Positions 4,817-47,716 of a stretch of DNA of 64,000 nucleotides are shown in pieces. The DNA lies in contig OZ287083.1 of assembly GCA_965645245.1 (NCBI GenBank), forward strand, positions 558,001-622,000, written 5' to 3'. The notes beneath the pieces are model-generated. The model did not search any database and was not told the DNA's origin. It saw only the letters and a list, made by a program, of their open reading frames with translations. Every line of letters starts with the position of its first letter. Positions within the stretch are counted from its first letter, which is position 1. Source of the DNA: Massalongia carnosa (taxonomy: Eukaryota). The translations under genes were made by a program, and so were the position numbers.

Positions 4817-6541
4817 ATGGCACCCAGTATCGTACATCTGCCCAATGGCCAGACTATCACCGTTTCGCCTGTCTTCGCCGGCTTATCCTTCAAAGCAAAT
4901 GATCTGAATGTCCATCATTCAATATCCCCTCCCGGGTGGACCATCATACTGGAATCCGAAGACGAGAAAGATAGCGAGTCACCGCCTAAGACCGAAAGTG
5001 ATGAGCAGACCCCTATTACTAGAAGGTGTAAGATTCATCGTTTTAAGACTCCTATGCTTCACCATGACAATCTCTTCATCTCGTCCATTTCAAATCCGAG
5101 TAACACGGACTTTAAACCTGCAACCTCCCCAACACGGCAAATAGCTATGATGCTATGGGCGACGCTGTACTGGTACTTTCATCAGGTAGGGGATTGATGG
5201 ATGGGCAAGGCCAAAGATACTGACTTGGCATTAGACCCCTCCAAATCCCCATCTCACCACTGGCGCCAATTCAGAAATTCCTGAAAAGGGCAGGCCAAAA
5301 GGCCAATGGCGGGTCAACATCAAAAGAGAGGGTATATTCAAAGGGAGACATCTCCTACCAAAACTGGAGCGTATGGGTCTTATTAGCAGTGAAGACTCCT
5401 GTGTCGGATCGTCCTCCGATAATAGAAGTGGACAAGGGTGGACCGAGATGTTCGTCAGCCAGCATTCATTCTGGCAACTAGATGCTCGAATATTCCTATT
5501 CACGCTTTCACCTACCATGCAATCGCCGTTTCCGGGAGGTTCCTCACCCTACCCTTCGCGGCCAAGCTCTCCCAACCGAGAAGGTGCTGGTGCCATGTCG
5601 CCAAGGCCAGATTTTCACGCAGAAGTAACCCAAGGTCTTTGGACTCCGCAGACACAAGGCCCTTTCGCATCCACTAGTCATCTCCCAACCTACTACCCCC
5701 CTCCTCCTCCCCAATATACATTCACCAACTCCATTAAGCATCCGATTCGTCCAAAACCTCCAGCCCAAGGCGAAACATTTTACACCCGTTTCATACCAAG
5801 TCTGGGTCAATATCTCTCGTTTCGAACAGCATCGAACTCTCCGAAGTCACCTGCTTATCGTGGGCCCATCTCCGGCGCGACGCCTGGTTTCCTTCCTCCA
5901 AAGTCAAGCCTCACATCAGCTGGTTCCATACCATTGATAGGCAACGTAAGCATTCCCCCTTGCGATACAGATCTCTTACATGCTTGGATGAACGACCCAA
6001 GAGTCTCCGCTGCCTGGGGTGTCGCCGGCCCTGTGGAAGTTCAAGAAGAATTTCTGAACCAGGGACTTAACGACAAGCACAGTTTTCCTGTGATTGGATG
6101 TTGGGACGGAAAGCCGTTTGGGTACTTTGAGATATACTGGGTAAAAGAAGATCGACTGGGACGACATCTTACCAGTAAAGACGTTAGTGATTGGGACCGG
6201 GGGTTTCATGCTTTGGTGGGAGAACAGGAGTTTCGGGGAAATCATCGAGTAAAAGTCTGGGCCAGTGCTTTAGTGCATTGTTGCTGGTTGGCAGATCCAC
6301 GGACAGAAAAAGTATTAATGGAGCCTCGAGCGGATAATGCAAAGTGAGTTCGTTTTATTTCATGAAATCTGTATACACTTTAGGATTACATTTGAAGTAG
6401 GATCTTGCTGACAGCGATCGAAGGTTTATCTCGTATCTTCAGGAAGTAGGGTTTTATAAGGAGAGGGAAATCACCTTCCCACACAAACAAGCTGCTCTTA
6501 TGAAAATTGTTCGAGAAGCTTGGGATGCGCCATTTTTATAA
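4817..6541 (+). CDS. N5-hydroxyornithine acyltransferase, GNAT/AlcB-IucB siderophore biosynthesis family (SidL-like)
   Basis: [55 protein letters not shown]; introns 5186-5234 and 6344-6423; ends WDAPFL with no PTS1, which fits SidL better than SidF. Confidence 0.88.
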
Positions 6542-7667
6542 CACATAATAACAGATTTGACGCATTTCATGTTTATAGATAGCAGATCATAAGAAAGTAT
6601 AAGGTCTTTAAAGAAGTATGTGGTGAGTGTCATACTCAACTCCACGGCCTCGAGAAGTCATGAACATATCTTAACTAAGCACATAATATGGTCGCTATCA
6701 TAGCTCACAGTGTTTTTTCTGTTGGCAATAACAGTTTTCGGACTATCTTTTGATAAAAGATCAGAAGGTCGGGATATGATAACTAATTCTCGAATGCGGT
6801 AACTTGATTTCATTCATTTCCATTTTTATTCTTCTTTACAAGGCCCAGCCTTTTCCTCACCTCTCTACTCTTTCAAACTCAGTCAACCATCCAGCATCTC
6901 AATACTTTTGGGCGATGCTAGGATTTGTAAATAGCTCCCATCGATAGATGACATACTTCGTTCAAGCTCTTGACATTCTTAGACTTGCTATATCCTCTAC
7001 GCATTACTTGAGTGGAATCCAAATTTTCATTATAGAGATTCTCACCAGCTACCACTCATTTTTGGGTTGTGACTAGTTTGCGTTCTCCAAGGGCCTTTTC
7101 ACCTTAACCTCAACCCTTACTCATAAGACATTTCTATCAGTTCAATGGCGTGGTGACGTGCTTAGAAGAATTTATCTGTTACCGTTGCTTGGTTCCAAAT
7201 AGCTATCTAAGAGAAATTCGTTCGCTCTACTACTTCGGATGCGCTGATCTCAATCTGAAGCTTGACAGCCAGCCTCGCTGAACAGCTTGTATTTCCTTAG
7301 TATTTCTCTTCTTTCTCAATATCTACCTTACGCACTTTCTCACTCGAAGAAATAATACCGTTGGATTACACGCCTTTCGAAGCTGTTGTACACGAAGGAA
7401 GATCCCTAAGGCTTGTAAAGGACAGCGGAGGAATACTCATTAGGATCTTCATACCTAGATAAGCAGGCTCCAAGCTTAGTTTGAATGAATCACATACTTT
7501 CTGTTTGTTCTTTATTTTTACAATCGGGCGTCTACCTTTGTGCAACTACCCTAAAGCTCCTTGAAGTTTCAAATCTCCTTATGCACAATTCACTTGGAAC
7601 CAGTTATCAGCTGAGTACTGCTTAGCTTTAAGCAGTCCACAGTGCCTGCAGACCTCAGAACCTTGAA

Positions 7668-9478
7668 ATGACTTCCTCTCGGAGCTCTGATCCTATCGTA
7701 ATCCTTGATGATGATGATGATGACTTGGTTGCCTGTGGGTCCTCCTGATCTCTTCAAGGCTCCACTGATCCCAAACTAGCGGCAGCACGTCCAGTCTTAT
7801 TTCAACCACCACCACACCAATCTTTGTTAACAAAATACCGATCTGGTAACATGACGCTCAAGCGAGGAAAAACAGTTGAGCTTAATACAGGAGAGTTCTT
7901 ACGCATAGAGAATATCTTACAAGATAGGGAGACGACGGAAGTATTCTTGGTTGGAAAACGGTTGCAACGAACGAAGGCGCTTCAAGGATATATCTCCCCT
8001 AGACTGAACGAGGTATGCTGGGTTCGGAATATGTGTAGCGACAGATCAGACGAGACAGAAAAAACACCCCTAGGGTGGGTCATTCGGTTACGACAGGCTC
8101 GATCCACGAATAGGCCTTACGTGGATTTCAATGGCTCCCATCTATTGGGAAATTCAAGACGCATGTTGATCAAAGAAGAAGGCGTTCTTTTCTGCAGGTA
8201 CAAATTTATTACAATTTATAGTGACAAAACCGCGAAACGGAGAGCTACGACATTCATCGAGAGATACCTTGGCAACTTGAGTGTCGAAGAGGCTGACCAC
8301 CAGTGTTCTGAAAGTCGGGCAAGAACTCGACAGAGATACGGGTATAGCCAACAAGAATTGTCCACCGAGAACGAGACTAGCTTCTCAACCGAGGAAAGCA
8401 GACTCCGGAGACGCCTTAGTTCGGTCACTCTTATTGATGGTAGCGCGCCTAGAGAAGTAGAACTCATACATCAAAGCGACGTTGACTCTCACTAACGACC
8501 GTACATAGAGGTACACATTCGGAGTCGTCTTCTGCGGTGCAGGAGGTATGTCCAGCGCTGCCAAACAAGCTGGCTTCGACGTAAAGTGGGGTCTGGAATG
8601 GGATCCAACTGCCGCCAGGACATTTCAGAAGAATTTTCTGGGTGCTGTTTGCGAAAACGCCCCTGTCTCCGACTTCGTCACACCCTCGATCTTTCCTCCA
8701 CACGAGTTCCGAGTCACCGTGCTGCATGTGTCCCCCCCGTGTCCCTCTTTCTCCCCCATGCAGACCGTAAAAGGCGCGGATTTCGAAGACAAGCAAGTTG
8801 TCATTCTTAGCTTAAACGAGATCATCACAATGATGAAACCGAGGATCGTCACCCTGGAAGAAACTTTCGGTTTGCTTTTTCCCTCCAACATGGAGTTCTT
8901 TAAGACGGTGATTCGGATCCTGAACGATCATGGATATTCCGCTCGCTGGAAAATTATGAATCTGGCACACTACGGTGCTCCTCAAAACCGCCGCAGGTTG
9001 ATCATCATAGCTGCAGGGTAAGTCGTTCGGTTCCCTTCTCTCTTTTTGTCCATTCCCCGCCCTCTAACCCCCTCAAACCAGACCAGGCGAACCTCTCCCT
9101 CCATTTCCGGCGCCGACCCACCTCGAAAGACCATGAACAATCGCCTCTCTAATCGCTCACCTACCCCCCAACGACCCCTATCACTCCCCGCTCCCCGCTC
9201 CCTACTCCGTCCCCCGCGCACCATACAACCCCCACGGACCCCTCCCCAACCTGATCGCCACCAACGGCGGCGACAACCACCACCCTTCGGGCACCCGCCC
9301 CTTTTCCGTCCGCGAGTTCGCCTGCCTGCAGACGTTCCCGAGAGACTTTGAGTTTGTGGGGAGCAGGACGGCGGCGCTCAAACAGATTGGAAACGCAGTG
9401 CCGCCGCTGGCGGGGAAAGCGATCATGATGGAGATTAAGAGGTGTTTGGAGGAGGTCGATACGAGGGGAACTTGGTAA
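7668..9478 (+). pseudogene. rid: RID/Masc1/DmtA-type C5 cytosine DNA methyltransferase with in-frame TGA codons at 7746-7748 and 9134-9136
   Basis: N-terminal GKTVELNTGEFLRI...NEVCW; motif I FCGAGG; motif IV HVSPPC; RID/Masc1-type motif VI LEETFGL; motif VIII YGAPQNRRRL; motifs [23 protein letters not shown]...KQIGNAVPP; introns ~8457-8508 and 9018-9081. Confidence 0.85.
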
Positions 9479-10375
9479 AGGAGAGAGGGCAAAGGTTCAG
9501 CGGAAAAGGAGAATTGTGGGTTTTTTCGAGACTGGGGCTCCGAGCTCGGTTTTGACTTTGTTTAGGAGAAGAACGGTTTCCCTCCCATGAACGGAGTTTT
9601 CCAAATTCTTGAACTGCACTTCCAGTCCCGGTTCACCAAACCATGTACTATTTTCATGCTTAACAAAATCCCCTAGCCAACCCGGCGATTCGACTCTAAC
9701 ACTGAGATACCTTACCCTACCCCTAAACGCGAACAGACATACCGTATATATACATACGTTGTATATCTAACCCTCTGGAACCCCCCACCAATTGCTCTCT
9801 AAAATTTGCCCGTTATCGGGGAAATCGAGATCTCGACGTTTCCATCCCCATAGGTACTTAGCTATCATCATCATGACACGGGTAGGACTCCCGGTTTCTT
9901 GGTGAGGAGGGAGACGAAGAGGAAAGATGGGACTGGAACTAGAACTAGAATGAAACTGGAATTATAATTAGAAGAGGATATCTTTGCGTAAAAAGAACAA
10001 GCGCAGATGCGGGCGTTTAAAGGGGGGAGGGTTTAGTTTGGGAGTTTCTCATACCCGTAGAGTGATATGGAAAGTGAGCAGACGGAATATAAAGTCCTAT
10101 GCAAGCCGCAGGGATCGGGATTGGGTGTATTGGCTGGTTATCTAATTTCGAGGAGGTAAGTACGCCGATGCGAATCGTCTGTTTGGGTCTGTACGGTATG
10201 CACGATCTAGAAATCGCGTGCACGGGTGTGATATCCATCTCATCCACTCCACTCCCGTTTAGAAATAGAACAAGATCGGACGGAAAGCATACGGGAGATA
10301 TCCAATTCCTCGTCTCAATGATAATCACTAAATACACCTCAACCCCTGCGCCGCCCCCAAAATTAATTAAATAAC

Positions 10376-11784
10376 TTAAAGTCCAAGGGCGTCATACCTC
10401 CCCATCGTAACGTCACATGGCGGAGTCTGTGAGTTCCGAGCAGCCCGCGGCGGATCTCCTACTGTAGGAATTTTCCGTGCAAGGACGGGAACAGTAGAAT
10501 TTCGAGGAGATGCTGCTGGAAGCCAAGAGCCCACGCTGTCGAGTAGAGCCTGCTGATCTTTGGGAATCCTCACGTCGCGCCCGCTGATTCGCTCGGAGGT
10601 CGTACCCTCCCACCTCTGCCTCGTGCGCGGCTCACCATTTTTTTGGGGCTCCTTTTGCTTCGCTCGATGCTGCTTTCGTTTTTCCTTGAGCTCGGAATGC
10701 GTCGGTTTAGACACCAATCCCTTCGAGATGTTGACGTCGCGCATGAAGATTCCCTCGGGGGTTGGGCTCTGCCACCTCTCCCGCCTCTGCATGGTCCGCA
10801 ACTGATCCTTCTCGAGCTCCCCTTCATTCTCTCGATGATGCTCTTGTTTGTCCCCGATATCTGAATGTCTTGGTTTAGATCCCAACTTCCTCTTTCGCAC
10901 CTTCTGCTCCTCTCGAATTCGCCTATGACGATCTAAGCCTTCTGCTTTCCTCGTTGCGTGCTTTATTTCCCGCTCGTCGATGACCCAAGGGGTGCTCAGG
11001 ATATTGCGTCGGAAGGTGGAGGTTTCGGCCCAACCGGCGGCTTCGTCGGTGGTGGTGCGGATGAGGGCTGGGGCGAGGCAAGAGCTGATTAGAACAGTTG
11101 GATGGCTAGCAAGACGTTTGCGGCAGGTATAGAAGCTGCGGCATCTAAAATGAAGGGAAAGAAATAATACCAACCTATTCGCTCTAGAGTTATTTGCTTC
11201 TGCCCCCTAAATTCCCCAATGCCCCCCTTAACCTTGACTACAGCCCCAACATCCACGCCGCTAAGGTCTATGGTATGCCCCATTGCTGACACGCCAATGT
11301 GTCCCCTTTTCCCCCCATCCATGTTATCTCTCTGGAGATTTTCATCATCCTTCATGCTCGCAGCTGGGTTCAAGGCATCTGTCGCAATGCCAGTTGCAGC
11401 AGCCACAGGGGCCTGGAGCGTACAAATAAGTTCAATAGAAGCACCACAGCTATCATCCAACTGGGCGATCCAGCGGTTGTAAACGTAGTCTACAGCAACG
11501 ATGACGCCGATAAGGCGAATCCATCTGATTGGGTGGTTGAGGTGGAAGTAGATATGTTGACCTGAGGATATTAGCCAACAAGCCGTATAACACTAAGGAA
11601 CAAGGGCGAGATTCGAAGAATAGACTAAACAGATAGAAAAGAAAGGCACACCTTCGTAGCCAGCTCTCTCCCTCAGATCGAGCACGTCGGCGGCAGTGAC
11701 GCGTGCCCATGTGTTGTAGGTTGGGGAGAGCGAGAGGCAGTAGGCCGGGTAAAAAGTTAAAGATTTGGAGGAGGGATTTGGCAT
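10376..11784 (-). CDS. STN1: CST-complex OB-fold telomere protein Stn1-like, with charged low-complexity C-terminal tail
   Basis: YPAYCLSLSPTYNTW, NHPIRWIRLIGVIV, LDDSCGASIE, VGAVVKVKGGIGEFRGQKQITLERI, TTDEAAGW; two introns (~11650-11563, ~11173-11070). Confidence 0.8.
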
Positions 11785-15845: not shown

Positions 15846-16891
15846 ATGGAGGACTTTTCTCTAGAACCTCCCACAACTATTGATCCCTACAAAGTCCTTG
15901 AGCTTGACACGACAGCCAGCGCTAGCGAAGTGAAATCAGCCTATAAGAAATTGGCTCTGCGATATCATCCAGGTAGCAATCATAACATGGGCCCTATACT
16001 TTAAACCTTCACTTACCTTTCAACACAGACAAAGCACATTCAGAGGCCAAGGACAAGGCGCACGTCAAATTCCAAGAGATCGCCTTCGCATATGCCATTC
16101 TCTCCGACGAACGCAGAAGAAAACGCTATGATACCACTGGTAATACTGCGGAATCTCTGGATATCGATGGCGATGAATTCAGCTGGAGTGACTTCTTTCG
16201 TGCGCAATGGGCTGAGGCGGTGACGAAGGAGAAGCTAGACGACTTCAAGTCCGGATACCAGGGTTCCGACGAGGAAAAGCGCGATGTGCTCGCAGCGTAC
16301 ACGTCCTTTAAGGGAAGGATGAACTCGATTTTCAACACGGTCATGTTGAGCAATCCCCTCGACGACGAAGATCGTTTTCGGGCATATATCGATCAAGCGA
16401 TTAGGGAAGATGAAGTAGAAGCGTTTGATGCCTACGCGAACGAGCCTAAGAAGGCGCGGGAGAAGCGCGCTGCGAAAGCTAAGAAAGAAAGCGAGGCAGC
16501 CAGAGCTCACGCCAAGGACATAGGGATCTACGATTTAGCGTTCGGAGTTGAGGACGTTGGGAAAAGGGACAAAGCTTCTATAGCAGGGAAAGGTGAACCA
16601 GACTTAAAGGCGTTGCTACAACAGCGAGCAACAGGCAGAGCGGCGAATTTCCTCGAGAATTTAGAGGCCAAGTACGGAGGAGGCTTAAAAAAAGAAAAGG
16701 GCGCAGAGCATGAACCGCCAGAGGAGACATTTCAGAAAGCGGCTACAAGGACGAGAAAGCGCAAAACGCGTGTGGTCGAGCATGTGGATTCAGAGGAGGA
16801 GATTGATCTTGAAGCGGATAGCCCTGATGATGAACCCGTCGCACCAACGAGACGGAAGAAATCGAAACGGACGAAACTCTCAAAGCGTTGA
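15846..16891 (+). CDS. J-domain protein, DNAJC9-like
   Basis: DPYKVL...KSAYKKLALRYHP|DK, KFQEIAFAYAILSDERRRKRYD, YQGSDEEKRDVLAAY, FLENLEAKYG; intron 15973-16028. Confidence 0.9.
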
Positions 16892-17038: not shown

Positions 17039-19367
17039 TAGGGCTCTGAAAATTTCGAAATTTTGACAAGGTCGCACGAGAATTTCATCACGTGTGCGCG
17101 CCAAGCATGAAATTTTCGAAATTTATTACTAAGCACATATACATATCTTGTAGATAGATCGATACCTCATTTTGATAGTCACTCTCATACATTTAAAGGT
17201 ATCTTCCGATTTTATACTCATGGCTCAACGCGGTGGAAGAAAGAAAAATTCTCTAATTGAGGAGAATTTCAAAGACGTGATCACCATGGGATTGAAAAAA
17301 CCTCACCATCAATGCATTCATTGTGGTCATCAGACTACCAAGAATGCTGTAAGAGGACTATCACATTTAGATCAATGTGATGCCTACAAACAGAAGATAA
17401 CAAAGAAGGAAATGCCTCGTTCAGTTCTAGATCAATCCAACTGCCCATTACCACCATGATTCGTCCCCTTAGCCAGAGTCAAATTGCTCATGCTCATCGC
17501 GAGGCGGCGATGTCTGTTTATATGACAAATCTTCCCTTCAACCACTTCGAGAATCCCTATGTTATTGCGGCATTTCAAGCTCTTTCTCCTGGATACAAGC
17601 CCCCTCATGCCAGACTGATGGCTGGACGATTGTTGGATGAAGCCTATGAAACAGTTAAATTCAAAATAAATCAAGAATTGAATGCTTGCAATCATCTCAG
17701 CTTTTTTACCGACGAGACAGCCAACATTCGAAAAGAGCGAGTAATAAATCTCTGCTGTCACGTTCCCACATCTGTCACTTCTAGTGGCGGAGGATTTCAG
17801 CTAAAAGCTGATGTCGGAGTGGCGGAAAAAATGACGGCTGTCGTACAAGCTGAATGGGTGATAAATGGATGTAGGGATGCTACCAACAATCAGCTTGAAA
17901 GGGTTAATTGTATCTGCACCGACACGTGCTCTACAATGAAAGCCATGTGGACGGAAATTTCGAAAAGTGCAGAGATGAAGCATGTTTTCTTCGTACCTTG
18001 CGATAGTCATGGTTTGTAGCTATTGTTAGGAGACATTTTGAAATTTCCTTATTTTACAGATGTTATAGAAAAGGCTCAGTTGATCGTCATCAGTTTTTCG
18101 CGGATCAAATAAGGAATTAGCCAGTTTATGGAAATACCAAATGAAGGCATACAAACAGCGTCGTTCCTTGGTTCTCAACGTTCTCACCAGATGGGGTACG
18201 ACGGTTGGTCTTTTAAATTCAGTACTGAATAATCAACAGGCCTTGTTGGATTATTTTCAGCAGAAGAATCCAGGCATAGATCAGGGAAGAAATAAACCTT
18301 TGGGAAGTTTCGTCAACGATTATTCCTTTTGGAAGAAACTGACCATGGTCAAAAAGATACTGAATCCCATTCATAAACTTCAGTACATGTCCGAAGCCGA
18401 GGGATATAAGCTATACACCGTAACAAATAACTGGAATATCATTCGCTCTCATCTGTACTCGATGGCCGAAGAAGAAAGCGACAGTGAGGCGGATCTATAT
18501 CACATTGCTCACGTCGTTTGGGAAGATAGATATCTCAGTCAAATAACAGAGCTTCATGTGGTTGCATCTCTTCTGCTTCCGCAAAATCGTACGATAAAGG
18601 TGGTCGGAGTTACTACAGAACATGCTTTTTCATCGATCATGCATAGATTCTTTGCTCGATATCTGAATGCTGAAGATAGCATCGTTGCCATGAGACAATG
18701 GCTTGCTTTTCGAGATCAGGAAGATGGATTTCATGCAAACTCAGAAGGTTGGACTTATCAGATGACACCGGAGCTGTTTTGGAATTTTTGCAAGCATTTT
18801 GCATTGATTCTTAGCAAGCTGGCCAGAAAGGTAATGATGCTTCCTGGCAATTCAGTGCTGGCAGAAAGAAGTTGGTCGGTCATGAATTTGATCATGAACA
18901 AGACTCGAAATTCCATGGCATCGATCAACGTGGATAAGCTGATGTTTATTTATCTGAATGAAAGAACTCTTAACCGACCGAAAGAAATCAAAAGGAAGCT
19001 ACAATTCGCAGACATTGACATAGAAGAAGACGATCTATGTGAGATGGAAGACAGATTGTTGCAGGAAGAAATCTCTCTGCAAGAAACAGCGACAGTAAAA
19101 TCGTTGAAACGACCAGCAAGTCAAGCGATAGAGGGAGATGCGGTCAGGCTCAGAGATACTTGAGATTGTATGAAGATTAATAGCTAAATCAAGTATCTTC
19201 AAGTTGGCATGTCCTCGTTCCTATTTTCCGCTTTCCCCGCACCCCCCCTCCCCCCTGCCTACCCCCTGCAAAACATCCATGAAAATTTCACTCGTGAAAG
19301 TCGCAGTGAAACTTTCATCCCGATCGGGTTAGGCAAAATTTCATAAAAGTTTCATTTCAGAGCCCTA
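17039..19367 (+). mobile_element. hAT-superfamily DNA transposon with a disrupted transposase
   Basis: 13-bp TIR TAGGGCTCTGAAA/TTTCAGAGCCCTA; 8-bp TSD CTAATAGT (17031-17038, 19368-19375); subterminal AAATTTC-like repeats. Confidence 0.95.
17220..19163 (+). pseudogene. hAT transposase (BED finger, DDE, hATC dimerisation) with frameshifts and a TAG at 18017
   Basis: CIHC...H...C; FFTDET; CDSHGL*LL; TRWGT; SVLAERSWSVMNLIMNKTRNSM; split across three ORFs. Confidence 0.9.
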
Positions 19368-30961: not shown

Positions 30962-33900
30962 ATGGCTCCAAGCCCCGCTGTATCTGGTGATAGGCTGCAT
31001 TCGCTGCATTCAGTCATAGAAGACTATCATGACTCCCTGCTATTTTATCTCAACGGCACAAGAGTAGCCTTGGACACCGTTGATCCAGAGATAACGCTAC
31101 TCGAGTACTTAAGGGGCATTGGTCTAACAGGTACTAAACTGGGATGCGCAGAAGGAGGCTGTGGGGCGTGCACGGTGGTAAGTTGAGGCGTATAAACTGT
31201 TGGCTGTTGATGCCGTGCTTATCATGACTAAAGGTCGTATCACAGCTCAATCCAACAACGAAGAAGATTTATCACGCCTCCATCAATGCTTGTCTGGCTC
31301 CGCTCATAAGTGTCGATGGTAAGCATGTCATCACGGTGGAAGGTATCGGAAACGTCAAAAATCCTCACCCCGTACAAGAGCGGATTGCTTTAGGTAATGG
31401 TAGCCAATGCGGGTTCTGTACACCTGGCATAGTCATGGTAGGCCAGATTATCAGCGCCCGGCCTCTTTTTCGCTGATGGCTATTTTAGAGTTTGTATGCA
31501 TTGTTACGAAATGATGCCAATCCTTCTGAGCATAAAGTTGAAGAAGCCTTCGATGGCAATCTCTGTCGGTGTACAGGCTATCGGCCAATACTTGATGCAG
31601 CGCACTCTTTTAGCGCCATGAATTCATGTAAGAAACTCACAGCCAACGGCGGTGGAGGCTGTTGTATGGAGAACGGAAACTCCACCAATAGAGATAGCTG
31701 CTACAAGAACGGTAGTGGCGAAAACATAATTCTTGCTCCATCTCAACGGTACACCCCACCAGATTTTATAGAGTATAAGCCAGATACTCAACTTATTTTC
31801 CCTCCGGCGCTCAGCAGACACGAGTTTAGACCTTTGGCTTTTGGGAATAAAAGAAAGAAATGGTACAGACCTGTGACCCTAAGGCAGTTGCTTGAAATTA
31901 AAAGCTCGTATCCATCAGCAAAAATCATTGGAGGGAGCACAGAAACCCAGATTGAAATTAAATTCAAAGCTATGCAATATACTGCATCAGTTTATGTTGG
32001 CGATATTGCTGAGCTTCGGCAATACGCTTTAAATCCAGAATATCTTGAAATTGGTGGCAATGTTGTGCTGACAGACCTGGAGGCGATCTGCATGGAGGCG
32101 ATTGAGCGCTATGGCCCAATAAAAGGACAGCCGTTCAGCGCAATCCTCAAGCAGATTCGTTATTTCGCTGGACGACAGATCCGAAACGTGGGTACGCCTG
32201 CAGGAAACCTTGCTACGGCATCTCCAATCTCAGATCTGAACCCAGTTTTTGTTGCCACCAATACAGTACTTGTAGCTAAATCGTTGAAAGAGGAAACAGA
32301 GATAGCAATGTCAGACTTTTTTAAAGGATACAGAACCACGATGTTACCCGCCAATGCTATTATCTTGAAGTTGCGGATACCTATCGCTCGCGAGAAAGGG
32401 GAGTACCTCCGGGCCTACAAACAAGCCAAACGCAAAGATGATGACATTGCTATCGTCAATGCCGCTTTACGTGTCTCTCTTGACCAAGAAAACTGTGTGG
32501 AAACGGTTGATCTCGTATATGGTGGAATGGCAGCGACTACTATTGCAGCCAAGAATACAGTAGCTTACCTTAAGGGAAAAGCTTGGTCAGACCCTGCCAC
32601 GTTAGAGGGCGCAATCAATACTTTAGGCGACGACTTTGATCTGCGCTTCGGTGTGCCTGGTGGGATGGCTACTTATCGAAAATCGCTCGCTTTCGGTTTC
32701 TTCTACAGGTTTTATCATGAGGTCCTTTCAGATCTTTCTATCAGGGAAGTAGACGTCGAAGGAGATGTGCGGAGGGAGATTGAACGCGAGATATCTACAG
32801 GCAAGAAAGATCACAAGGCTACTCAAGCCTACGAACAGCGAATCTTAGGCAAAGCCAACCCACATGTTGCAGCGCTGAAGCAATGTACTGGAGAAGCACA
32901 ATATACAGATGATATACCGGTGCAGAGAAATGAGCTTTATGGGGCTGTGGTCTTGTCGACTAAGGCTCATGCCAAGATTTTAAGTGTTGACTTTTCTCCG
33001 GCTATAAAACTACTTGGTTTCGCAGGCTGGGTTGACCACAATGATCTACCCACTCCTGAATCCAACTGCTGGGGCGCTCCTAGCTGCGATGAGGTTTTTT
33101 TTGCCGTCGATGAAGTCTTCACTGCTGGACAACCAATTGGGATGGTTCTTGCTGATTCTGCGAAGCACGCCGAAGCCGGTGCTCGGGCGGTGATGGTGCA
33201 ATACGAAGAGTTACCTGCAATATTCACGATTGAGGAAGCAATTGTTCAACAAAGTTATTTCGACCACTATCGGTACATAAAAAAAGGAGATGTTGAAGAA
33301 GCGTTCAGACGTGCAGATCATGTGGTTAGCGGGGTGGCTCGAATAGGTGGTCAGGAGCATTTCTATCTTGAGACTCAGGCTTGTGTGATCGTACCCAAGC
33401 CCGAGGATGGAGAGATGGAGGTGTTCAGCAGCACACAAAACCCCACCGAGACGTAAGCTTAGCCTTCACTTATTTTAGAATGATGCTTATTAGAAAACAG
33501 GCAGTCGTACATTGCTCAAGTCACAGGAGTCCAGGCCAATAAGATTGTGGTAAAGGTGAAGCGTCTTGGTGGAGGGTTTGGTGGGAAAGAAACCAGATCG
33601 ATCCAATTGGCAGGAATATGCGCAGTAGCAGCCAAGAAAACCAAGCGACCTGTGCGCTGCATGCTTAATCGGGACGAGGACATGATAACTTCTGGTCAAA
33701 GGCATCCTTTTCTGGCACATTGGAAGGTTGGTGTCAATAAGGATGGAAAGCTTCAAGCTCTTGACGCTGAAGTGTTTTGCAATGCTGGTTAGTATGGTAA
33801 ACCTTTGAAGTGGCTCACTCTGACTATTGCTCAGGTTGGAGCCAAGACCTTAGTGGTGCTGTATGCGATAGAGCATTGTCTCACATTGAGAATTGCTATC

Positions 33901-35234
33901 TCTTTCCCCACGTTCATGTCCGAGGTCGTCCCGTCAAAACGAATACGGTTTCCAATACTGCCTTCCGCGGATTTGGTGGTCCGCAAGGAATGTTTATTGC
34001 AGAGTCATATATGGAAGAAGTCGCTGATCATTTGAATATGCCGGTCGAGAAGCTTCGTCAGATCAACCTTTACAAACCCAATGAGCTCACTCACTTTAAT
34101 CAAGAGCTCAAGGATTGGCACATTCCTTTAATGTACAAGCAAGTTCTCGAAGAATCTGACTACACAGCACGAAGGAAGGAAGTTGAAGATTTCAATGCCA
34201 ACCACAAGTGGAAAAAACGCGGTCTCTCCATCATCCCTACAAAATTTGGTATCTCGTTCACAGCACTCTTCCTCAACCAAGCAGGCGCCTTAGTCCACAT
34301 ATACCATGATGGCTCCGTGCTTGTGGCCCACGGCGGAACAGAAATGGGTCAGGGTCTACACACGAAAATGACCATGATCGCAGCCGAAGCCCTTGGCGTC
34401 TCCCTCTCCGACGTCTTCGTGTCCGAAACGGCAACAAACACCGTTGCTAACACCTCCTCGACCGCCGCGTCCGCCTCCAGCGACCTAAATGGCTATGCCA
34501 TCGTCCACGCTTGTGCTCAATTAAATGAGCGCCTACGGCCCTATCGGGAAAAATTCGGTCCAGATGCGCCCATGAAGAAGCTTGCTCAAGCCGCCTACTT
34601 CGACCGCATAAATTTATCCGCCAACGGCTTCTACAAAACTCCAGACATCGGCTACGTCTGGGGCCCTAATACGGGACTAATGTTCTACTACTTCACCCAG
34701 GGAGTCGCGGCAGCCGAGGTAGAGATTGATACTCTGACGGGCGACTGGACTTGCCGGCGCGCCGACCTAAAAATGGACGTTGGCCGTTCCATCAACCCAG
34801 CCGTTGACTACGGCCAGATCGAAGGCGCATTCGTGCAAGGTCAAGGCCTCTTCACGACAGAGGAAAGCCTATGGTTACGCGCCTCAGGTCAGCTCGCCAC
34901 CCGTGGCCCGGGCACCTACAAGATTCCCGGCTTCCGCGACATCCCGCAGCGCTTCCACGTCAGCCTGCTGAAAGACGTGGAGTGGGAGCATTTACGCACA
35001 ATCCAGCGATCACGCGGAGTGGGTGAGCCGCCCCTGTTCATGGGTAGTAGCGTGTTTTTCGCCATTCGGGACGCGTTGAGGGCGGCGAGGAGACAGTACG
35101 GGTTAAGCGAGGTGCTGAGTTTACAGAGTCCTGCTACCCCGGAGCGGATCCGGGTTAGTTGTGCGGATCCTTTGATAAGAAAGGCACTGGTTGTGCCGAA
35201 AGAGGAGGAGAAGAGCTTCTTTATGTCCATCTAG
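30962..35234 (+). CDS. hxA: Xanthine dehydrogenase (purine hydroxylase I)
   Basis: [34 protein letters not shown] (2Fe-2S); FAGRQIRNV (FAD); [38 protein letters not shown] (Moco); four introns. Confidence 0.97.
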
Positions 35235-37982: not shown

Positions 37983-40615
37983 GGGTGCGGATACGGGCAC
38001 ACCCTATTAGCTACCTTAACACCCTACTTTGCTACCTTCACACCCTACTTGGATACATTCACACCCCCGAAAAAGTAACTGCAAAAGAGAAAGTTTCCGC
38101 CCCCTAAGCGGCGCGAAATTTTGCCGCACCTGAAATTTCGCTGCATCTTTCGCAAAATTTCGTCGCATCTTGGAATTTCGCCGCAACCTTCTTCTTACTC
38201 CTGCAGAATGTCATCTTCCGATGACACGTTCAATGGTTTTGATACCGAATCCAATTCTTCCGCTCCCAATCTCATCATCCTCGAAAGAGTCGCATCTGCC
38301 TCCCCTCCGCCAGCTTCTCCCCCTCCGCCAGCTTCTCCCCCTTCGTCAGCTTCAGCACCTCTTACTGCTCCGGAAGAAGGACAATCCTTTGAGTCTTTGG
38401 AAGACTTGATTCAACGAGTCAATGAGCATGCTGGCCCGCGCGGTTATGCAATTGTTCTCGCTCGTACGAAGAAGAATAAGGATGGAAATACGCGCAAAGC
38501 TTGGTTGATTTGCGATCGAGGAGGCAGAATGAGAGAACCTCGCGGACAAAGTCGTCGTCATACTGCCAGCAGAGCCATTGCTTGTCCCTTTTCAATGATT
38601 GCGATTCGGGAAAAAGAGTCTGATATCTGGTTTTTGGAAGTGGTCAAATCGGAACATAATCATGCCTCGAGTTTGGCAGGGGCTCATCCAGTGCATCGAA
38701 AGATGGCTATCACCGCCGAGGTAAAAGATGAGATATCGCGTCAGCTAACTGTTCAGACTGCTCCATCGAAAGTGATTTCGAGTCTGCACATACCTGATCT
38801 TACCACCGGAATCAATTGGGACGATCCGGCCAATCCTCGAGTCGTCAATCCCATGATCAAACCTCGAGACATCTACAATCTCAAGGCTCAACTTCGTCGC
38901 GAGGCTTTGGGACCGTTGACTCCCATACAGGCATTGATTCGAGAGCTTGATCAGAGCGACGCTTGGTTGTATCAAATGCAAAAGAATGAGGAGGATCGCA
39001 ATCAGATAACTCATTTATTCTTTGTAAAAGGAAGTTCCCGAACTTTTTTAAAGTCCAACTATGAGGTTCTGATCATGGATTGCACTTATAAAACCAATCG
39101 CTACAAAATGCCTCTTCTGATCATCAGCGGTTAAACCGCATTGCATACCAATTTCTATGTGGCTTTTTGCTTCATGGCCAGTGAGACAAAATTTGACTAC
39201 ACCTGGGTTTTGAGGCAAGTCAAAGCTCTATATTTGCAAATGGAGCTTCCAGATCCGACCGTCATTGGCACCGACATGGAAAGAAGTCTGATGCTTGCTC
39301 TTCGTGCGCAATTTCCTCGTACCAATCATCTGCTTTGCATTTGGCATATCAATAAGAATGTCGTCGCCAATTGCAAAAGACAATTCAGCAAGGAAGAAGA
39401 ATATCTAGCTACCACCTACATTACTCATGTTCAGCATTTCGTAAGATGCTTTACCAATCGAGTACTGCATTTTGACACCACCACTACTTCTCGAGGTGAG
39501 GGAGGGCATGCAGTGATCAAACGTCAATTAGGAACGTCGACCGGAGGTCTGAAAACGGTGGTGGACGGAATCAGTCTTTATTGCTGAACGAGTGTCATAA
39601 CTATTGGATCAAATTGAATGAGGACAAAACGCGATATCCGCTAGATCTTCGGAAATCAATTTTTCAGCAAATATCTCCATTCATCAGTACTAAGGCAATC
39701 AGAAGAATTAATTCTCAGTACGATTTACTGACCGGGAGACCGACGGCTCTGCCAGCATGTACGAATTCTATTACAACCAGCACCGGACTGCCTTGCAGTC
39801 ATAGAATTCAGGAAAGATTGTATGGCGAAGGAAGTTTATTGCTGGAAGACGTTCATCCACATTGGAGATTTGAAAGAAACGCTCCCGCCAATGATTTCAA
39901 TCTGCTGATAGTGGAAGAACCAGACATTATTCGACCTCATGGACGACCTTCGGGAGCGGAAAACAGAAGAACTCAAGCTTTCAATGCCTCTACGGGTCGA
40001 CAACCTTCTCAATTCGAGCGAGTTATTATGGAGACGGCAGAAGATGAAGAGGTGCCAGCGGATGTGGAACGGGTCATTCGTCGGGCGGATCCAGCCTCGA
40101 CAAGGGCGCGAGGCAGAAGAGCTCGAGCTGATCGAGCTGATCGAGGTGGTGGAGATGCGCGGGGGACGCGGGGGACGCAGGATGCGCAGGAGACTCGAGG
40201 GACTCGAGGTGCGCGAGGGATTCGAAGAAGTGCTCGGAATGCGCGAGAGAATCAGGGAGGTGAGGGAGATGTCAGAGATGGAGACGGCGAAAATGAGAGT
40301 TGAATGAAGCAGCGATAGATCAGGCAGGAAATGAGGTAGCTAGTCTGCTTTAAGTTTAGTAGCTTGAAATCAAGGTGCGAATGGCCAACATGGTGCCAAT
40401 CGACTCCGATTCCTAAGGTTCGAAAACATGGAATTTCTTCCTTCCCCATCTCAGGCGACAGAATTTCGCACCGCTTACCCTACTCGGGAAAGGGGGGGCG
40501 GAAACTTTTCCTTTTGCGGTTACTTTTTCGGGGGTGTGAATTTATCCAAGTAAGGTGTGAAGGTAGCAAAGTAGGGTGTTAAGGTAGCTAATAGGGTGTG
40601 CCCGTATCCCGACCC
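37983..40615 (+). mobile_element. Mutator-like (MULE) DNA transposon
   Basis: ~120-bp near-identical TIRs (GGGTGCGGATACGGGCACACCCTATTAGCTACC... / ...GGTAGCTAATAGGGTGTGCCCGTATCCCGACCC); 8-bp TSD TTCATTTA (37975-37982, 40616-40623). Confidence 0.95.
38208..40303 (+). pseudogene. MULE transposase (FAR1-type DBD, DDE, SWIM-like finger) with TAA at 39132 and a frameshift near 39580
   Basis: CDRGG...CPF...HNH; MDCTYKTNRYKMPL; TDME; LCIWHI; TTSRGEGGH; CTNSITTSTGLPCSH. Confidence 0.9.
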
Positions 40616-41603: not shown

Positions 41604-42236
41604 ACTGGAGACAGGCATGAAACGAATGGGACTGCATAACAAAGGAGGCCGAAAACTAACCTGGAGATGGGATGAAAAGCATGGAAAAGTGGTTCGAAAA
41701 GGCAAAGGAGGCGTCGATTGGTATCGATATCAAAAGATCATTCTTCTTCCTAAACGTCTTCCATTTGCTAAAGAATGTATGAAAGATCGTCCCGATACTA
41801 TTGTACAAGAGGACAAGGCTCTCAGTCATGCTTCCAAACATCAAGACCTTGTCTTTATGGATGCAGGAATTTTGCGTCTGCTGTGGCCGGGTAATTCTCC
41901 CGATTTAAACATGATCGAGCAATGTTAGCCTTCGATGAAAAGACAAACCACACGAAAAGGAGCACCTCGAAATCGTATTACGTGTAAGAACCACTATCCA
42001 GGGAAGACGGATAGTAGTCAGCTACCTAAGAGACTAAGCATGAAGAAGAGAAATCTATCTACAAAGAAGAATGTGAAATCTATATGCCCGTTTGCCCTTC
42101 TTCTCGAAGTTTCCATCCGGCTCTAGAAGCTTATCTCCGAAGCTTCGGTCGGAAAGAGCCGTTGGATTTAGCGCTCCCACACCCGAGTCCTGACACTACC
42201 CCCCCTCTTGGTTAGTTAGCGAGCTCCTGATCGCTG

Positions 42237-45200
42237 TCATGTGATTAGCTTCGGTCGCGGCTTCTTTGGATATTTCCGATGATATTCTTCCACAGTTTCT
42301 TTTGAATTCGCAAAATCTTCGGCCGGATACCATGTGTTATCCGGTGGGTAATTGCTCCATTTTACCTTGTATTGTAGCTTCTTGTTGAAAGTTCTTGAAT
42401 CCAAAATATCATCAATTTCAAATTCTTCCTCGTTGTCAATAATTACCGGTGGTGGAGGCGGGGGTATTTGTCCGGGCAATGGGTCTTTACTTGCTGGTCG
42501 GAGTAATGATGAATGGAAAACATCGTGTATTTTCATCGATGCTGGAAGATCTAACTTATAGCTATTCCCCAAAGCTTTTAATATCTTGTACGGTCCGATC
42601 ATCTTATGATCTAGCTTTTTCGAAGGCCTTTCCGTTTTGATATTTTTGGTTGATAGCCAAACTTCATCTCCTTCTTTATAGGTTGGTGCCTCCTCCCGAT
42701 GATTGTCCGCGAATCTCTTCTGACTTTCTTGGCTTCGTACTAGGTTTTCTTTTCCGAATTCCCAGATTTTCTCCATTGCTTGGCCGATATTTTTTGCTCG
42801 AGTTTTCAATATTCTTTCTCTGGCCGATCCGGTAGATGCGTCAATCGGATAGAAGCTCATCCTCGGTTCAAACCCATAGTTGACCTGAAATGGAGATAAT
42901 CCACTTGAAGCTGAGACACAGGCATTTGATGCGAACTCGGCCATCGATAGCCACTCTGTCCAGTCATCTTGCTGATAATTGACATAGGTTCTCAGATATC
43001 GCTCCATTTCTTGATTGGATATTTCGCTTTGACCGTCGGTCTCGGGATGGAATGCGGTTGATAACTTGGCTTTTATTCCCAGCATTACGCATAGCGATTT
43101 CCATACTAGCGATACGAATTGAGGTCCCCTATCTGAGATTATCGTGGTCGGTAGGCCATGCAATTTCCATACATGTTTTATTAGCATTCGGGCCGTCTCT
43201 TCGGCAGTTGTCCCTTCTTCGTCCGTGGTGCATGGAATGTAATGATGCATCTTGGAAAATCGGTCTACTACCATTAATATTGCATTATGACCTTTGCTTT
43301 CAGGTAGGCCAGTTACGAAATCCATTGATATATCTGTCCAGGGCCGGTCTGGTATAGGTAGCGGATTTAATAGTCCGGATTAACCGTCCCTTGGAGCTTT
43401 TGCTCTTTTGCATGTATGACAATTTCGAATGTATTGTTCTATGGTCCCTTTCATCTTTGGCCAAAAAAAGAATTTCTTCATCATCTCGTAGGTCCGCTTT
43501 ATTCCCGGATGGCCAACGGCTGGTTGATCGTGAACTTCCTGTATCAGCTTCATTCTCTTTTCTTCGGGGACAAATAGTTTGGCATTATTCTCGAGCGGAT
43601 CTTTCGACTTTTCCGCGTTGATCTCGTTCATTTCAAACCCCATTTCCTTTTGGATTTGAGGGTCTAGGCTTTCGAGAGGTAAGATTATCTGATGTTGATG
43701 CCTTTGCCTGTCATCTTCCTCTGATTCGGGCCTGTCTCCTGGTCTTCTAGTTAGTGCATCTGCCTTTGTATGGAATTTTCCAGCTTGGTATGTGATGACA
43801 AAATTGAAATCGGCCAGAAATTCAGCCCATCTGGCCTGTCGCCTATTTAGCTTTTTGGTTGTCATGAAATATTCCAAGCTTTTGTGGTCGGTCAACACTT
43901 TGATTGGGAGCTCGGTGGATTGCAGCTCAGGCCTCCATTGTTCGAAACATTTGATTATTGCAAGCAATTCTTTATCGTATATTTCATAATTGCATTCGGC
44001 TGGCAACAGGCTCTTTGAAAAGAAGGCTACTGGTCTGATAAGTCCATCTTCACCTCTTTGCGATAATACTCCGGCTGACACATAATCAGATGAATCCGAT
44101 TCCACGAACGTTTCTCGGCTTGGGCTGAAATGCGCGAGGACCGGGGCCTCGGTCACCCGTCTTTTCAATTCGGAAAAAGCTGCTTGGCAGGCTGGGGTCC
44201 AATTGAATGGTTCGTCTTTTCGAGTTAGATGTACGAGGGGTTTGGCTATTTTGGAGAAGTCTTTGATAAAACGTCTATAAAAGTTGATAAATCCTAGAAA
44301 GGCCTGCACCTGTTTAAGATGCCTAGGGATGGCCCATTCGACGACTGCCTCAATTTTGGTAGGGTCCATCTTGATCCCATTCCGCCCGACTACCACTCCT
44401 AGGAACTTTGTTTCGGTCATATGGAATTCGCATTTATCCACATCAGCCTGAATACCAGCTTCTCGAAGCTTTTGTAGAACTTTTCGAACATGTTTTCGGT
44501 GGTCAGTCATGGTTTCACTATAAACCAAGAGATCGTCCAGATAGGCTATTAGGAATTCGTCTAGATATTCTAAGAAGGTATCGTTGATGAAGTTCTGAAA
44601 CGTAGCAGGGCCGTTGGTCAGTCCGAAGGGTAATACTAGAGATTTATATGACCCAAATCGCGTGCGGAAGGTTGTGAGATCTTCGTCCTTTTCGGTTTTC
44701 ATCCTAAGTCGGTTAAAGGCATGTCGAATATCTATTCTTGTCAAAAATCTAGCCCTGGCCAATCGAGACATTATCTCAGATATCAGAGGTAGGGGATATC
44801 GATTTTTTTTGGTGATTTCGTTTAGCTTTCGATAATCGACGCAGAACCGAAGTCCTCCACTCGGTTTCTTGGCGAATAGTATCGGCGAGGCAAAAGGGGC
44901 CGAGCTGGCTGTAACAAATCCTTTCTTCAGATTTTCTTCCAAATATCTCTTGACCAGTAGGAGTTCTCCCTCTGACATATTATATAGCGGGGCACGCCCG
45001 GGTCCTTTACCTTCTAGCAATTCGATGGTATGGTCATGCTTTCTATGAGGGGGCAGTTCATCAGCTTTTTCCTTAGAGAAAACATCAAGAAAATCGTGAT
45101 ACTCGGGGGGGACTATGGTCTTAGGATCGGTGATTGGCTTTTCTCCCTTGGCTAGTTCAAAGTTGATATCTCTCAGCGAGACTGCAAATATCTCGACATC

Positions 45201-45944
45201 CTTTTGTTTCGTTAATACATTAAATGGGTCTGCACCTATCATCGCTATATCCAGGGCTTCTTCGCTCTCGGCGTCTTTTCTCCAAGACTTTTGCTTCAAG
45301 ATATCTTCCTTTCTTGATCTTCGAACTGAAATCGGGTTCGAGTTGCTATGATTCTTTTCATCGGGTTCGTCTCTTTTCAATATCTTCTTTGGTTGGAATA
45401 TAGGCGTGGTGTCCTTTGTTGAGCCCGGTTCTTCTCTCCTGATTGGCGACGATGGGAAAGGCCTTTCAGGGGCACCTAGATGATTGCAATGATCGGGACG
45501 AAAAGAAATCGAATTCGTATGCCCATGATAGCTAACACCATGTTTTCGCATCCAAGGCTTGCCAAGAATAATCGTTTGTTGGCCCAGCTCGGTGATCAAC
45601 ATTGGTGTTGAGCTCTCGGTATGATTTCCAATTTTCAGAGATGGATAAATGGCCTGGGTAATAGGCTTGCCTTTTCTTCCATCATATGCCTTTATCTCTT
45701 TCCGTCTATTTAACGTCACCGGTGAGATATTAGCCTTTTCACATATTTCCTGCGCAGTTAGTCTATCAACAAAACAATAACCAGTAGATCCAGTATCAAT
45801 CATCGCTCTCGTATTAAATTTATTTCCTACGATACAATCTTCCATTACTGGATGGTCATCGAATAAATCATCCTCCATAAAGAAAGATGTGATAACCAAC
45901 TCATCTACCCCCGCCGCGTCTATGACGGAGGTGCGTCTTTTCCC
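42237..45944 (-). pseudogene. pol: Chromovirus pol (PR-RT-RNaseH-IN-chromodomain) with one in-frame TAA at 43380-43382
   Basis: IDTGST; LRFCVDYRKLN; YLDD; ESDSSD...YDKELLA; H-H-C-C finger; SDRGPQF...QSE; FEIDDILD...YKVKW...TW chromodomain; ORFs 43380-45899 and 42237-43325 share a frame. Confidence 0.95.
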
Positions 45945-47215
45945 GAATCTTCTGCTTCTGCGCTCATCTCGCTAACCCGTCCCTTTCTAGGCTGAGGGCA
46001 GTCTTTGGCCATATGCCCGGTCAGATCGCAGTTAAAACATCTTCCTTCCTTCATTCTTTTCTCCATGATTGGATCGGGATGGGGGGCTCGGGCCATAAAG
46101 GGCGTTGAAGATCGGCTGCTGGTGGCGGAAGGCATTGCGGGAGTACGGGTTAATGCGGGGGTGGAGGCCTTTACGATGGAGGTGGTCCCACCGGCCGTGC
46201 TTGCGATAGGTACTGAGGGGCCAATAAAGTTCTTTCGATAGCCTTTCGTCTTGGTCTCAACCTCGCGGATGGTCTGATCAGTATGCATGCATAGGCGTGC
46301 GAATTCATACAAATCGGTGGCCTTGTAGGCCTCGACGGCTAGCATCTTCTGGAGCTCAAAGTTCATCTTGTTGCGGAGCTCATTCAGTAGGGTCTTTTCG
46401 GAATATTCAAGTTCGTTGGCTAAGCGTTGGAATTCTGACCAGAAGGCATGGAATTCTCGATATTTACCCACTTGTTTAAGGTCGCGGAATTCTCGCAGTG
46501 CTGTTTGTTCCTTGTGAGGGTCACCATATACTCGGTTTAAATCATCGAAAATCTCTTCGGCAGTGGTAAATGGTTTGGTAGACTCCTTTCTAAATCTAGA
46601 GGCTATATGCTTGACTGCCTCACCACCAACCCGAGTCCGTACGTATGCCTTTTTCATGGCCTCGGTAGGGTACCAATCCGCATTGCCTTCTAGCTTATTT
46701 CGCATGCTAGATAGCCAGTCCTCGAAGTTGTCGTCTTTATTATTTTCGAGAATGGGTGGGTCAGGAAGCTTGGAAGATTTGCCAACTCCTTCGGGGGCAG
46801 GTGTTGACGCGGTAGTGGTCGTGTGTGTATGCACATTCTCGGCCGATACGGTGCTTGCGGACGATATGTTGGTGTTTTGAAGAAATTGGATTATCACCTT
46901 AGCTTTATCCAATTCCTCTTGGGCCGAGTCCCGCTCATCGCGAAGGGTCCGGGCTATCTCTAACGTTTCATTGAATCTTTCGGCCACCTTGTTCAATAGG
47001 TGGGTCTTCGTTCGGGACTCCGTCTTCAACTCAGTTATCATTTCCACCACCCGCTGGGGGTCCTGGCGGACAAATTCATTCAGTCTATCCACGGAGTCGA
47101 TGCTATATGGGGAGTCATCATCGATAATATTAGGGACAATGGACTCACGTCGGCCCTCCATGGGTTCGTCCATAGTGAGCCTACTCCTTCGAGGCTCGCT
47201 GATTACTCGGGGCAT
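45920..47215 (-). CDS. gag: Retrotransposon Gag
   Basis: 431-aa ORF; KLPDPP...W capsid-like region; CFNCDLTGHMAKDC zinc knuckle. Confidence 0.93.
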   Translation of the reverse strand: MPRVISEPRRSRLTMDEPMEGRRESIVPNIIDDDSPYSIDSVDRLNEFVRQDPQRVVEMITELKTESRTKTHLLNKVAERFNETLEIARTLRDERDSAQEELDKAKVIIQFLQNTNISSASTVSAENVHTHTTTTASTPAPEGVGKSSKLPDPPILENNKDDNFEDWLSSMRNKLEGNADWYPTEAMKKAYVRTRVGGEAVKHIASRFRKESTKPFTTAEEIFDDLNRVYGDPHKEQTALREFRDLKQVGKYREFHAFWSEFQRLANELEYSEKTLLNELRNKMNFELQKMLAVEAYKATDLYEFARLCMHTDQTIREVETKTKGYRKNFIGPSVPIASTAGGTTSIVKASTPALTRTPAMPSATSSRSSTPFMARAPHPDPIMEKRMKEGRCFNCDLTGHMAKDCPQPRKGRVSEMSAEAEDSGKDAPPS

Positions 47216-47716
47216 TTCTTCTTTCTTTCTTGGGGGTGTTCTTATCTTGTGATCTTCTATTCGATGGCCGAGAAATCCTGGTTTCTACGATCCTGGGTTC
47301 TGGTTCTTCTGGGTCTGAGTTCTTCTTTTGATTCTGGTAATTCTGGTGGCCTAGAAATCCTTGCTTCTAAGGTCCTATGATCTGGTTCTAGTCTAAGTTC
47401 CGGGTTCTTCTTCTAATTTTCCTGGTTGAACGGTTTAATATCGTGTTCAGGATAGCAAGGGTTAAAGAAGATGCTTAGTCTAATGTAAGAACCACTATCC
47501 AGGGAAGACGAATAGTAGTCAGCTACCTAAGAGACTAAGCATGAAGAAGAGAAATCTATCTACAAAGAAGAATGTGAAATCTATATGCCCGTTTGCCCTT
47601 CTTCTCGAAGTTTCCATCCGGCTCTAGAAGCTTATCTCCGAAGCTTCGGTCGGAAAGAGCCGTTGGATTTAGCGCTCCCACACCCGAGTCCTGACATTAC
47701 GGTTGCCAAAGCATGG

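Follow-up and report, generated by a model that had tools for sequence, protein, structure and literature searches.

Two in-frame TGA codons in a RID-type methyltransferase gene of a lichen-forming fungus: a probable unitary pseudogene

Architecture and family of the interrupted gene

The gene described here occupies positions 7668-9478 of a 64-kb window of Massalongia carnosa DNA (the window being the whole stretch of 64,000 nucleotides that was analysed, with positions counted from its first base; Table 1). Its stop-to-stop ORFs occupy three different frames (7749-8495, 8509-9021 and 9137-9478), and two putative introns, called on splice signals and homology, would reconcile them. Once both introns are left out, the coding sequence measures 1695 nt and contains internal stops at codons 27 and 451 only, referred to below as TGA1 and TGA2. 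Both had been picked out in an earlier sequence-only reading of the locus and are confirmed, in register with the homologous reading frame. The same reading had described a frame that stays open through HPSG...QIGNAVPP, and no stop indeed interrupts 9137-9478. It had also reported an absence of frameshifts, which is correct for the window allele, although 7668-9478 is not one frame and changes frame twice, at the putative introns.

The position of intron 2 is common to orthologues: the models P0015 and P0021 join up at this point without a gap, and the ORF-type predictions P0002, P0003, P0011 and P0017 run into the intron as '..AAGYV..' or '..ASGYV..'. At the other end of the gene, DPIVILDDDDDDLVACGSS, an acidic motif at the N terminus, can be aligned with D[IV][IM]DLDRDDSP.T..GD of Teloschistaceae orthologues, which indicates that ATG 7668 is the ancestral start and that TGA1 falls within ancestral coding sequence. 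The ATG at 7851, proposed earlier as a way around TGA1, is codon 62 of the reading frame. Of the six closest aligned orthologues with a complete N terminus, four have a Met at the same place, and several orthologue ORF predictions begin at the equivalent of Met62, MTL[KR].GKTVEL.

Table 1. Positions of the gene's parts, of its lesions and of other features in the 64-kb window
Feature	Position	Strand	Remarks
Neighbour, GNAT acetyltransferase (Acetyltransf_8)	5235-6347		
Exon 1, codons 1-263 (putative)	7668..8456	+	probable ancestral start ATG 7668
GAT-rich repeat	7698-7731		codes for a poly-Asp run
Candidate 45-nt in-frame intron	7735..7779	+	GTGGGT..CTGAT..TAG; would excise TGA1; proposed from signals
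TGA1, codon 27	7746..7748	+	TCC TGA TCT; poorly conserved linker just past the N-terminal motif
In-frame ATG, Met62	7851..7853	+	candidate restart downstream of TGA1
Codon 178, TAC (Tyr) in the window	8199..8201	+	TAA in the X4 allele via 8201 C>A
Intron 1, 52 nt (putative)	8457..8508	+	GTAGAA...CACTAAC...TAG
Exon 2, catalytic half	8509..9017	+	PF00145, E 2e-28
Motif I, FCGAGG	8530-8547	+	exon 2
Site of +T insertion in X4	8642..8643	+	frame shifted
Motif IV, SPPCPSFS (catalytic Cys)	8731-8754	+	exon 2
Motif VI, LEETFG	8854-8871	+	exon 2
Motif VIII, QNRRRL	8983-9000	+	exon 2
Intron 2, 64 nt (putative)	9018..9081	+	GTAAGT...TCTAAC...CAG
Exon 3, short target-recognition region and motifs IX, X	9082..9478	+	PF00145, E 1.8e-14
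TGA2, codon 451	9134..9136	+	..HLERP*TIAS..; within the target-recognition region, upstream of motifs IX/X
Motif IX	9311-9340	+	exon 3
Motif X, GNAVPP	9389-9406	+	exon 3
Natural stop TAA	9476-9478	+	end of exon 3
Neighbour, DNAJC9-like gene	15986-16891		
hAT-type transposase ORFs (Dimer_Tnp_hAT) and FAR1-domain transposase-type ORF	17381-19163 and 38079-40303		long open frames
Neighbour, xanthine dehydrogenase	31489-35234		
Ty3/gypsy LTR retrotransposon, nearly intact	41983-47700	- (ORFs)	ORFs 42237-43379, 43380-45971, 45920-47284; RT, RNase H and integrase domains
Neighbour, BET bromodomain protein	54911-57367		
Neighbour, Utp12	60060-62156		

A Pfam profile search returned PF00145 on both sides of TGA2, in exon 2 and in exon 3, and exon 1 past TGA1 (7749-8456) matched no Pfam family at E <= 0.01. 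Since PF00145 lies on either side of TGA2 and orthologues align across it free of gaps, the TGAs sit in a genuine coding frame and are not chance occurrences. Six C5 cytosine methyltransferase motifs (I, IV, VI, VIII, IX and X) are present in canonical order. The motif VI triad is EET instead of ENV (codons 379-384), EET or ENT being found in the orthologues, and motifs VIII and IX are spaced by 82 residues, which makes for a short target-recognition region. Precomputed annotation gives PF00145 as the sole Pfam content of the 20 closest homologues, with no accessory domain; BAH and other accessory domains are features of DIM-2 and Dnmt1. Excerpted text of PMC6709928 names two peculiarities of the Masc1/RID group: EQT or EET replaces ENV, and the target-recognition region is ~80 aa long.

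The closest homologues of exon 2 with a named source are from lichen-forming fungi, with Heterodermia at 59% and Teloschistaceae at ~46%; the best match overall reaches 71%. The Heterodermia orthologue, P0015, is full-length and aligns with Eurotiomycete proteins over 94-99% of its length at 37-41% identity, and its best named full-length matches carry the source name 'C-5 cytosine methyltransferase DmtA'. DmtA is a close homologue of RID and Masc1 according to the abstract of PMC2432034. Motif features and the source names of homologues together support placement of the disrupted gene in the fungal RID/Masc1/DmtA cytosine-methyltransferase family. The RID/Masc1 label given from the bare sequence thus stands, on the EET triad, the VIII-IX spacing, PF00145 and the lack of an accessory domain.

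Spread of the stop codons and a second allele

Five sequencing runs from three studies, none of them recorded as RNA, contain all or part of the stretch, and four of these, again from three studies, were compared with the locus. The comparison was made on assembled contigs and not on raw reads, so that rare variants such as a minor intact allele would be dropped. Both TGAs are unchanged in the contigs of all four runs (X1, X3, X4 and X5). The X1 contig matches the window exactly or almost exactly; since the window may have been derived from it, it gives no independent support. X3 comes from a further sample of the X1 study and is identical over both stops. X5 belongs to a third study and is labelled as another organism; its contigs (7667-7944 and 9000-9168, depth 3.9 and 4.2) show no differences. 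X4, a lichen metagenome from the second study, provides a contig over 7732-9600 at depth 26.8 in which both TGAs are kept. A spliced joint was seen in none of the contigs.

The presence of the TGAs in contigs of four out of four runs from three studies means that they are not due to misassembly and not restricted to a single sample. Sense codons in the reads, or a stop confined to the sequenced strain, had been put forward as outcomes that would undo the disruption or its recoding, respectively; TGA stands at both sites in the contigs of every run, and X3, X4 and X5 share both codons with the window. An error of assembly or sequencing, or a pair of stops limited to the sequenced strain, has a negligible probability given a second sample (X3), a diverged allele in a second study (X4) and a third study (X5), all with both TGAs.

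The X4 allele is separated from the window by one insertion and, over 1869 bases, 17 substitutions, all of which fall outside the two TGAs, as does the insertion. One substitution, 8201 C>A, converts codon 178 from TAC to TAA. The insertion, a T behind 8642 (codon 308), is carried by one contig and diverts translation into a frame that ends at a stop at 8808-8810 (ORF 8496..8810), with motif IV and its catalytic Cys read out of frame. Two of the substitutions fall in intron 2 and 15 in coding sequence, the latter comprising 10 non-synonymous (one of them the nonsense change) and 5 synonymous differences. Over 1288 non-synonymous and 398 synonymous sites this gives a pN/pS of 0.62 (binomial test against neutrality, p = 0.37, on only 15 differences), which is not distinguishable from neutral. 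The TAA at 8201, the extra T and this ratio are not what selection keeping the gene otherwise intact across individuals would leave. Furthermore, a frameshift cannot be repaired by editing, which makes recoding of the shared TGAs unlikely.

Several smaller features of the run assemblies were recorded. The X4 contigs break at the GAT-rich repeat (7697 / 7732), which was left out of the read comparison; length polymorphism at the repeat is possible. The overlap and break between the two main contigs of X3 falls at 8496-8525, and a 55-nt contig (depth 7 versus ~866) departs from exon 2 at 8525 into unrelated sequence; this may reflect a rare variant, by rearrangement or insertion, or noise in the assembly graph. 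X1 and X3 each contain an 89-nt contig (depth 12 and 21, versus 460 and 866) that matches the motif X region at 9354-9387 with 4 mismatches in 34 nt, the probable source being a diverged paralogue or a different methyltransferase gene belonging to a less abundant organism.

To measure constraint, the conceptual protein, with X at the stops, was aligned with 219 homologues and columns at least 93% conserved were considered. Of 55 such near-invariant columns, four hold a non-consensus residue in this protein (D269V, G280A, D293E and D333T), the column of D269V being occupied by D in 218 of the 219 homologues, and one further column at least 93% conserved is absent from the conceptual protein. 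The median homologue departs at ~1 of 56 near-invariant columns, and the rate seen for the window is reached by 5 of the 219. A maximum-likelihood tree of 42 rows (44 were chosen, and P0004 and P0125 were dropped because motif VIII was not locatable) showed no clear acceleration, with a terminal branch of 0.68 for the window versus 0.59 for its sister P0002. Metagenome contigs scanned with exon 2 yielded four loci at only 25-29% identity, too distant for a branch dN/dS or for assessing the candidate N-terminal intron. All catalytic motifs are intact in the window allele, which has no frameshift; these two properties, along with the lack of clear branch acceleration, suggest that inactivation was fairly recent.

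Bypass, recoding and loss of function

For a full-length enzyme to be made, both stops would have to be circumvented. The sequence offers no acceptor AG between 9137 and ~9330, so TGA2 is not removable by splicing without losing motif IX. Among alternative acceptors, that at 9129 keeps the same frame as 9081, and that at 9086 opens a Pro/Arg-rich frame out of register with motifs IX and X. Splicing out of TGA2, which the sequence-only reading had raised as an event that would refute disruption, was accordingly rejected for want of a usable acceptor. There is also no in-frame Met between TGA2 and codon 548. TGA1, going by its sequence context, could be removed by splicing of the 45-nt candidate intron or avoided by starting at Met62. 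Excision of the candidate intron would take out CGSS, which is aligned with a conserved xGDS, and this argues slightly against its being an intron.

It is conceivable, then, that a truncated protein, begun at Met62 or freed of TGA1 by splicing and running to codon 450 with motifs I-VIII, has a non-catalytic function, for example in sexual development. The conserved, in-frame ATG at 7851, the acceptable signals of the candidate intron that could remove TGA1, and developmental roles of RID-like proteins mentioned in extracts of PMC2432034 and PMC6709928 are all in keeping with such a product. However, the X4 stop at codon 178 and the X4 frameshift at codon 308 both lie inside it, near-invariant columns are substituted within it and pN/pS is near neutral, and a functional truncated protein is accordingly considered improbable.

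A more elaborate possibility had been suggested from the sequence: that A-to-I editing in the sexual stage turns the two UGAs into UGG, or that ribosomes read through them, with full-length RID made in fruiting bodies only. The Fusarium precedent invoked for it is sound, in that the premature stop of FgRID/PSC49, a member of the same family, is corrected by editing and the edited allele has TGG (PMC12366691 and PMC10776026, as excerpted). In addition, the window allele retains all motifs and has no frameshift, both stops are common to all sampled individuals, and the TGA2 position is variable among orthologues, such that Trp might be tolerated: the residues in this column, across 16 aligned orthologues, are N, N, N, A, T, T, T, A, T, S, A, M, R, R, P and T. 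Trp itself is found in none of the 16. Of the two residues that had been anticipated at 9134, Arg does occur (2 of 16).

Most of the evidence points away from recoding. The X4 allele has the TAA and the one-base insertion in addition to both TGAs, and these are beyond repair by editing. At premature stops, sexual-stage editing converts UAG to UGG and strongly favours an A that has U at -1 and sits in a hairpin loop, according to passages of PMC12366691, PMC10776026 and PMC11156358. Here the codons are UGA and in both of them the candidate edited A is preceded by G, not U. No hairpin was found at TGA2, where the 61-nt fold around 9134 has a stability of -5 kcal/mol (z = 0.43, with 130 of 200 shuffles at least as stable). 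UGA-C is the leaky context for readthrough, but the two TGAs are followed by A and T. The four substituted near-invariant columns likewise weigh against a full-length enzyme kept in use. Selenocysteine or a structured recoding signal was tried as a further candidate and rejected, no Rfam element being detected at E <= 1 in 7000-11000 and no tRNA gene within the 64-kb window.

The phylogenetic position of the host is also unfavourable, as it is a lichen-forming Lecanoromycete and not a Sordariomycete. The same three sources assign the origin of the editing system to the ancestor of the Sordariomycetes and treat Pyronema as a separate case; genome-wide editing was, by their account, not found in A. 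nidulans or B. cinerea (PMC12366691, PMC10776026, PMC11156358). Lecanoromycetes are mentioned 0 times in the editing review PMC11156358. With X4 carrying a TAA and a frameshift, UGA in place of UAG, a Lecanoromycete host, no hairpin and no Trp orthologue, the proposed UGA-to-UGG editing or readthrough switch is very improbable. A narrower form, in which the window allele would be stage-gated in fruiting bodies (TGA1 spliced or bypassed from Met62, TGA2 edited or read through) and X4 would be a null variant, is given just as slight a chance. If true, this gated form would put stop-codon gating of RID outside the Sordariomycetes and on UGA.

The locus is, in all likelihood, a plain unitary pseudogene of a RID/Masc1/DmtA-type methyltransferase in a lichen-forming Lecanoromycete, shallowly decayed and of fairly recent origin. 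Recent loss of RID was the first of the two alternatives originally offered, and the shared TGAs, the extra lesions of X4 and the near-neutral pN/pS favour it. Under the pseudogene interpretation, an ancestral gene of three exons and ~564 codons would have gained two nonsense codons in the common ancestor of all sampled individuals and would have drifted free of constraint since, one sampled allele later acquiring a third stop and a frameshift. A full-length enzyme would be impossible; at best, a fragment to codon 450 might be made, without motifs IX and X and with only a minor part of the target-recognition region. Judged from these lesions, the disrupted gene would be devoid of function. RID-dependent RIP would then no longer operate in this fungus, although RIP could still be performed by DIM-2 or another enzyme.

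Genomic context and comparison with known RID-type systems

Every one of the neighbouring genes, which are ordinary ones (Table 1), shows long open exons, and in-frame stops are therefore not general to this assembly. The best named matches of the Utp12 neighbour are from Lobaria (65%) and Pseudocyphellaria (61%); together with the lichen-fungal homologues of exon 2, they place the host among the Lecanoromycetes. GC content per 2 kb ranges from 0.42 to 0.60 across the 64-kb window and an AT-rich block is absent. The two 217-nt LTRs of the Ty3/gypsy element are distinguished by two transitions; its pol and gag ORFs are long, with one in-frame TAA at 43380-43382, and its GC content is 0.45. Divergence of the LTRs was considered as a test of RIP and set aside, two transitions in 217 nt being too few, over too short a length, to be informative. 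The composite RIP index is -0.76 for the Ty3/gypsy element and -1.08 and -1.16 for the hAT-type and FAR1 ORFs; no RIP signature was found in the transposon ORFs of the 64-kb window, and no 1-kb window within it exceeds 0.5. Transposon ORFs free of a RIP signature fit with RIP not acting on these elements, bearing in mind that one 64-kb window cannot represent a genome.

RID-type proteins are needed for RIP in Neurospora. They are also needed for sexual development in Aspergillus nidulans and Podospora. A natural null in all sampled individuals suggests either that the RID-dependent pathway is dispensable and has been lost, or that sexual reproduction is rare or absent, the first option being in line with the unmarked transposon ORFs of the window. 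A dead RID is also a small data point on genome defence in lichen fungi. It contrasts with Cladonia rangiformis, which excerpts of PMC12542154 describe as having strong RIP, transposon-derived blocks of ~16% GC and homologues of both RID and DIM-2. Both are Lecanoromycete lichen fungi with a RID homologue, whereas the window analysed here is without an AT-rich block or RIP signature (PMC12542154, same excerpts, for Cladonia).

The result is a dead member of a known family and not a new mechanism, and the closest parallels differ from it. FgRID1/PSC49 of Fusarium graminearum belongs to the same gene family and likewise has a premature stop in an otherwise intact-looking gene; there, in the accounts excerpted above, it is a selectively maintained TAG that is edited to TGG in a Sordariomycete with known editing, whereas here there are two TGAs in a Lecanoromycete, no hairpin, and a second allele with lesions beyond repair. 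Compared with RID of Neurospora crassa, Masc1 of Ascobolus immersus, DmtA of Aspergillus and PaRid of Podospora, the gene has the same order of motifs I-X, the EET triad, a short target-recognition region and no accessory domain. Unlike these four, it has two TGAs that break its reading frame (four such lesions in the X4 allele) and substitutions at near-invariant residues, D269V for example.
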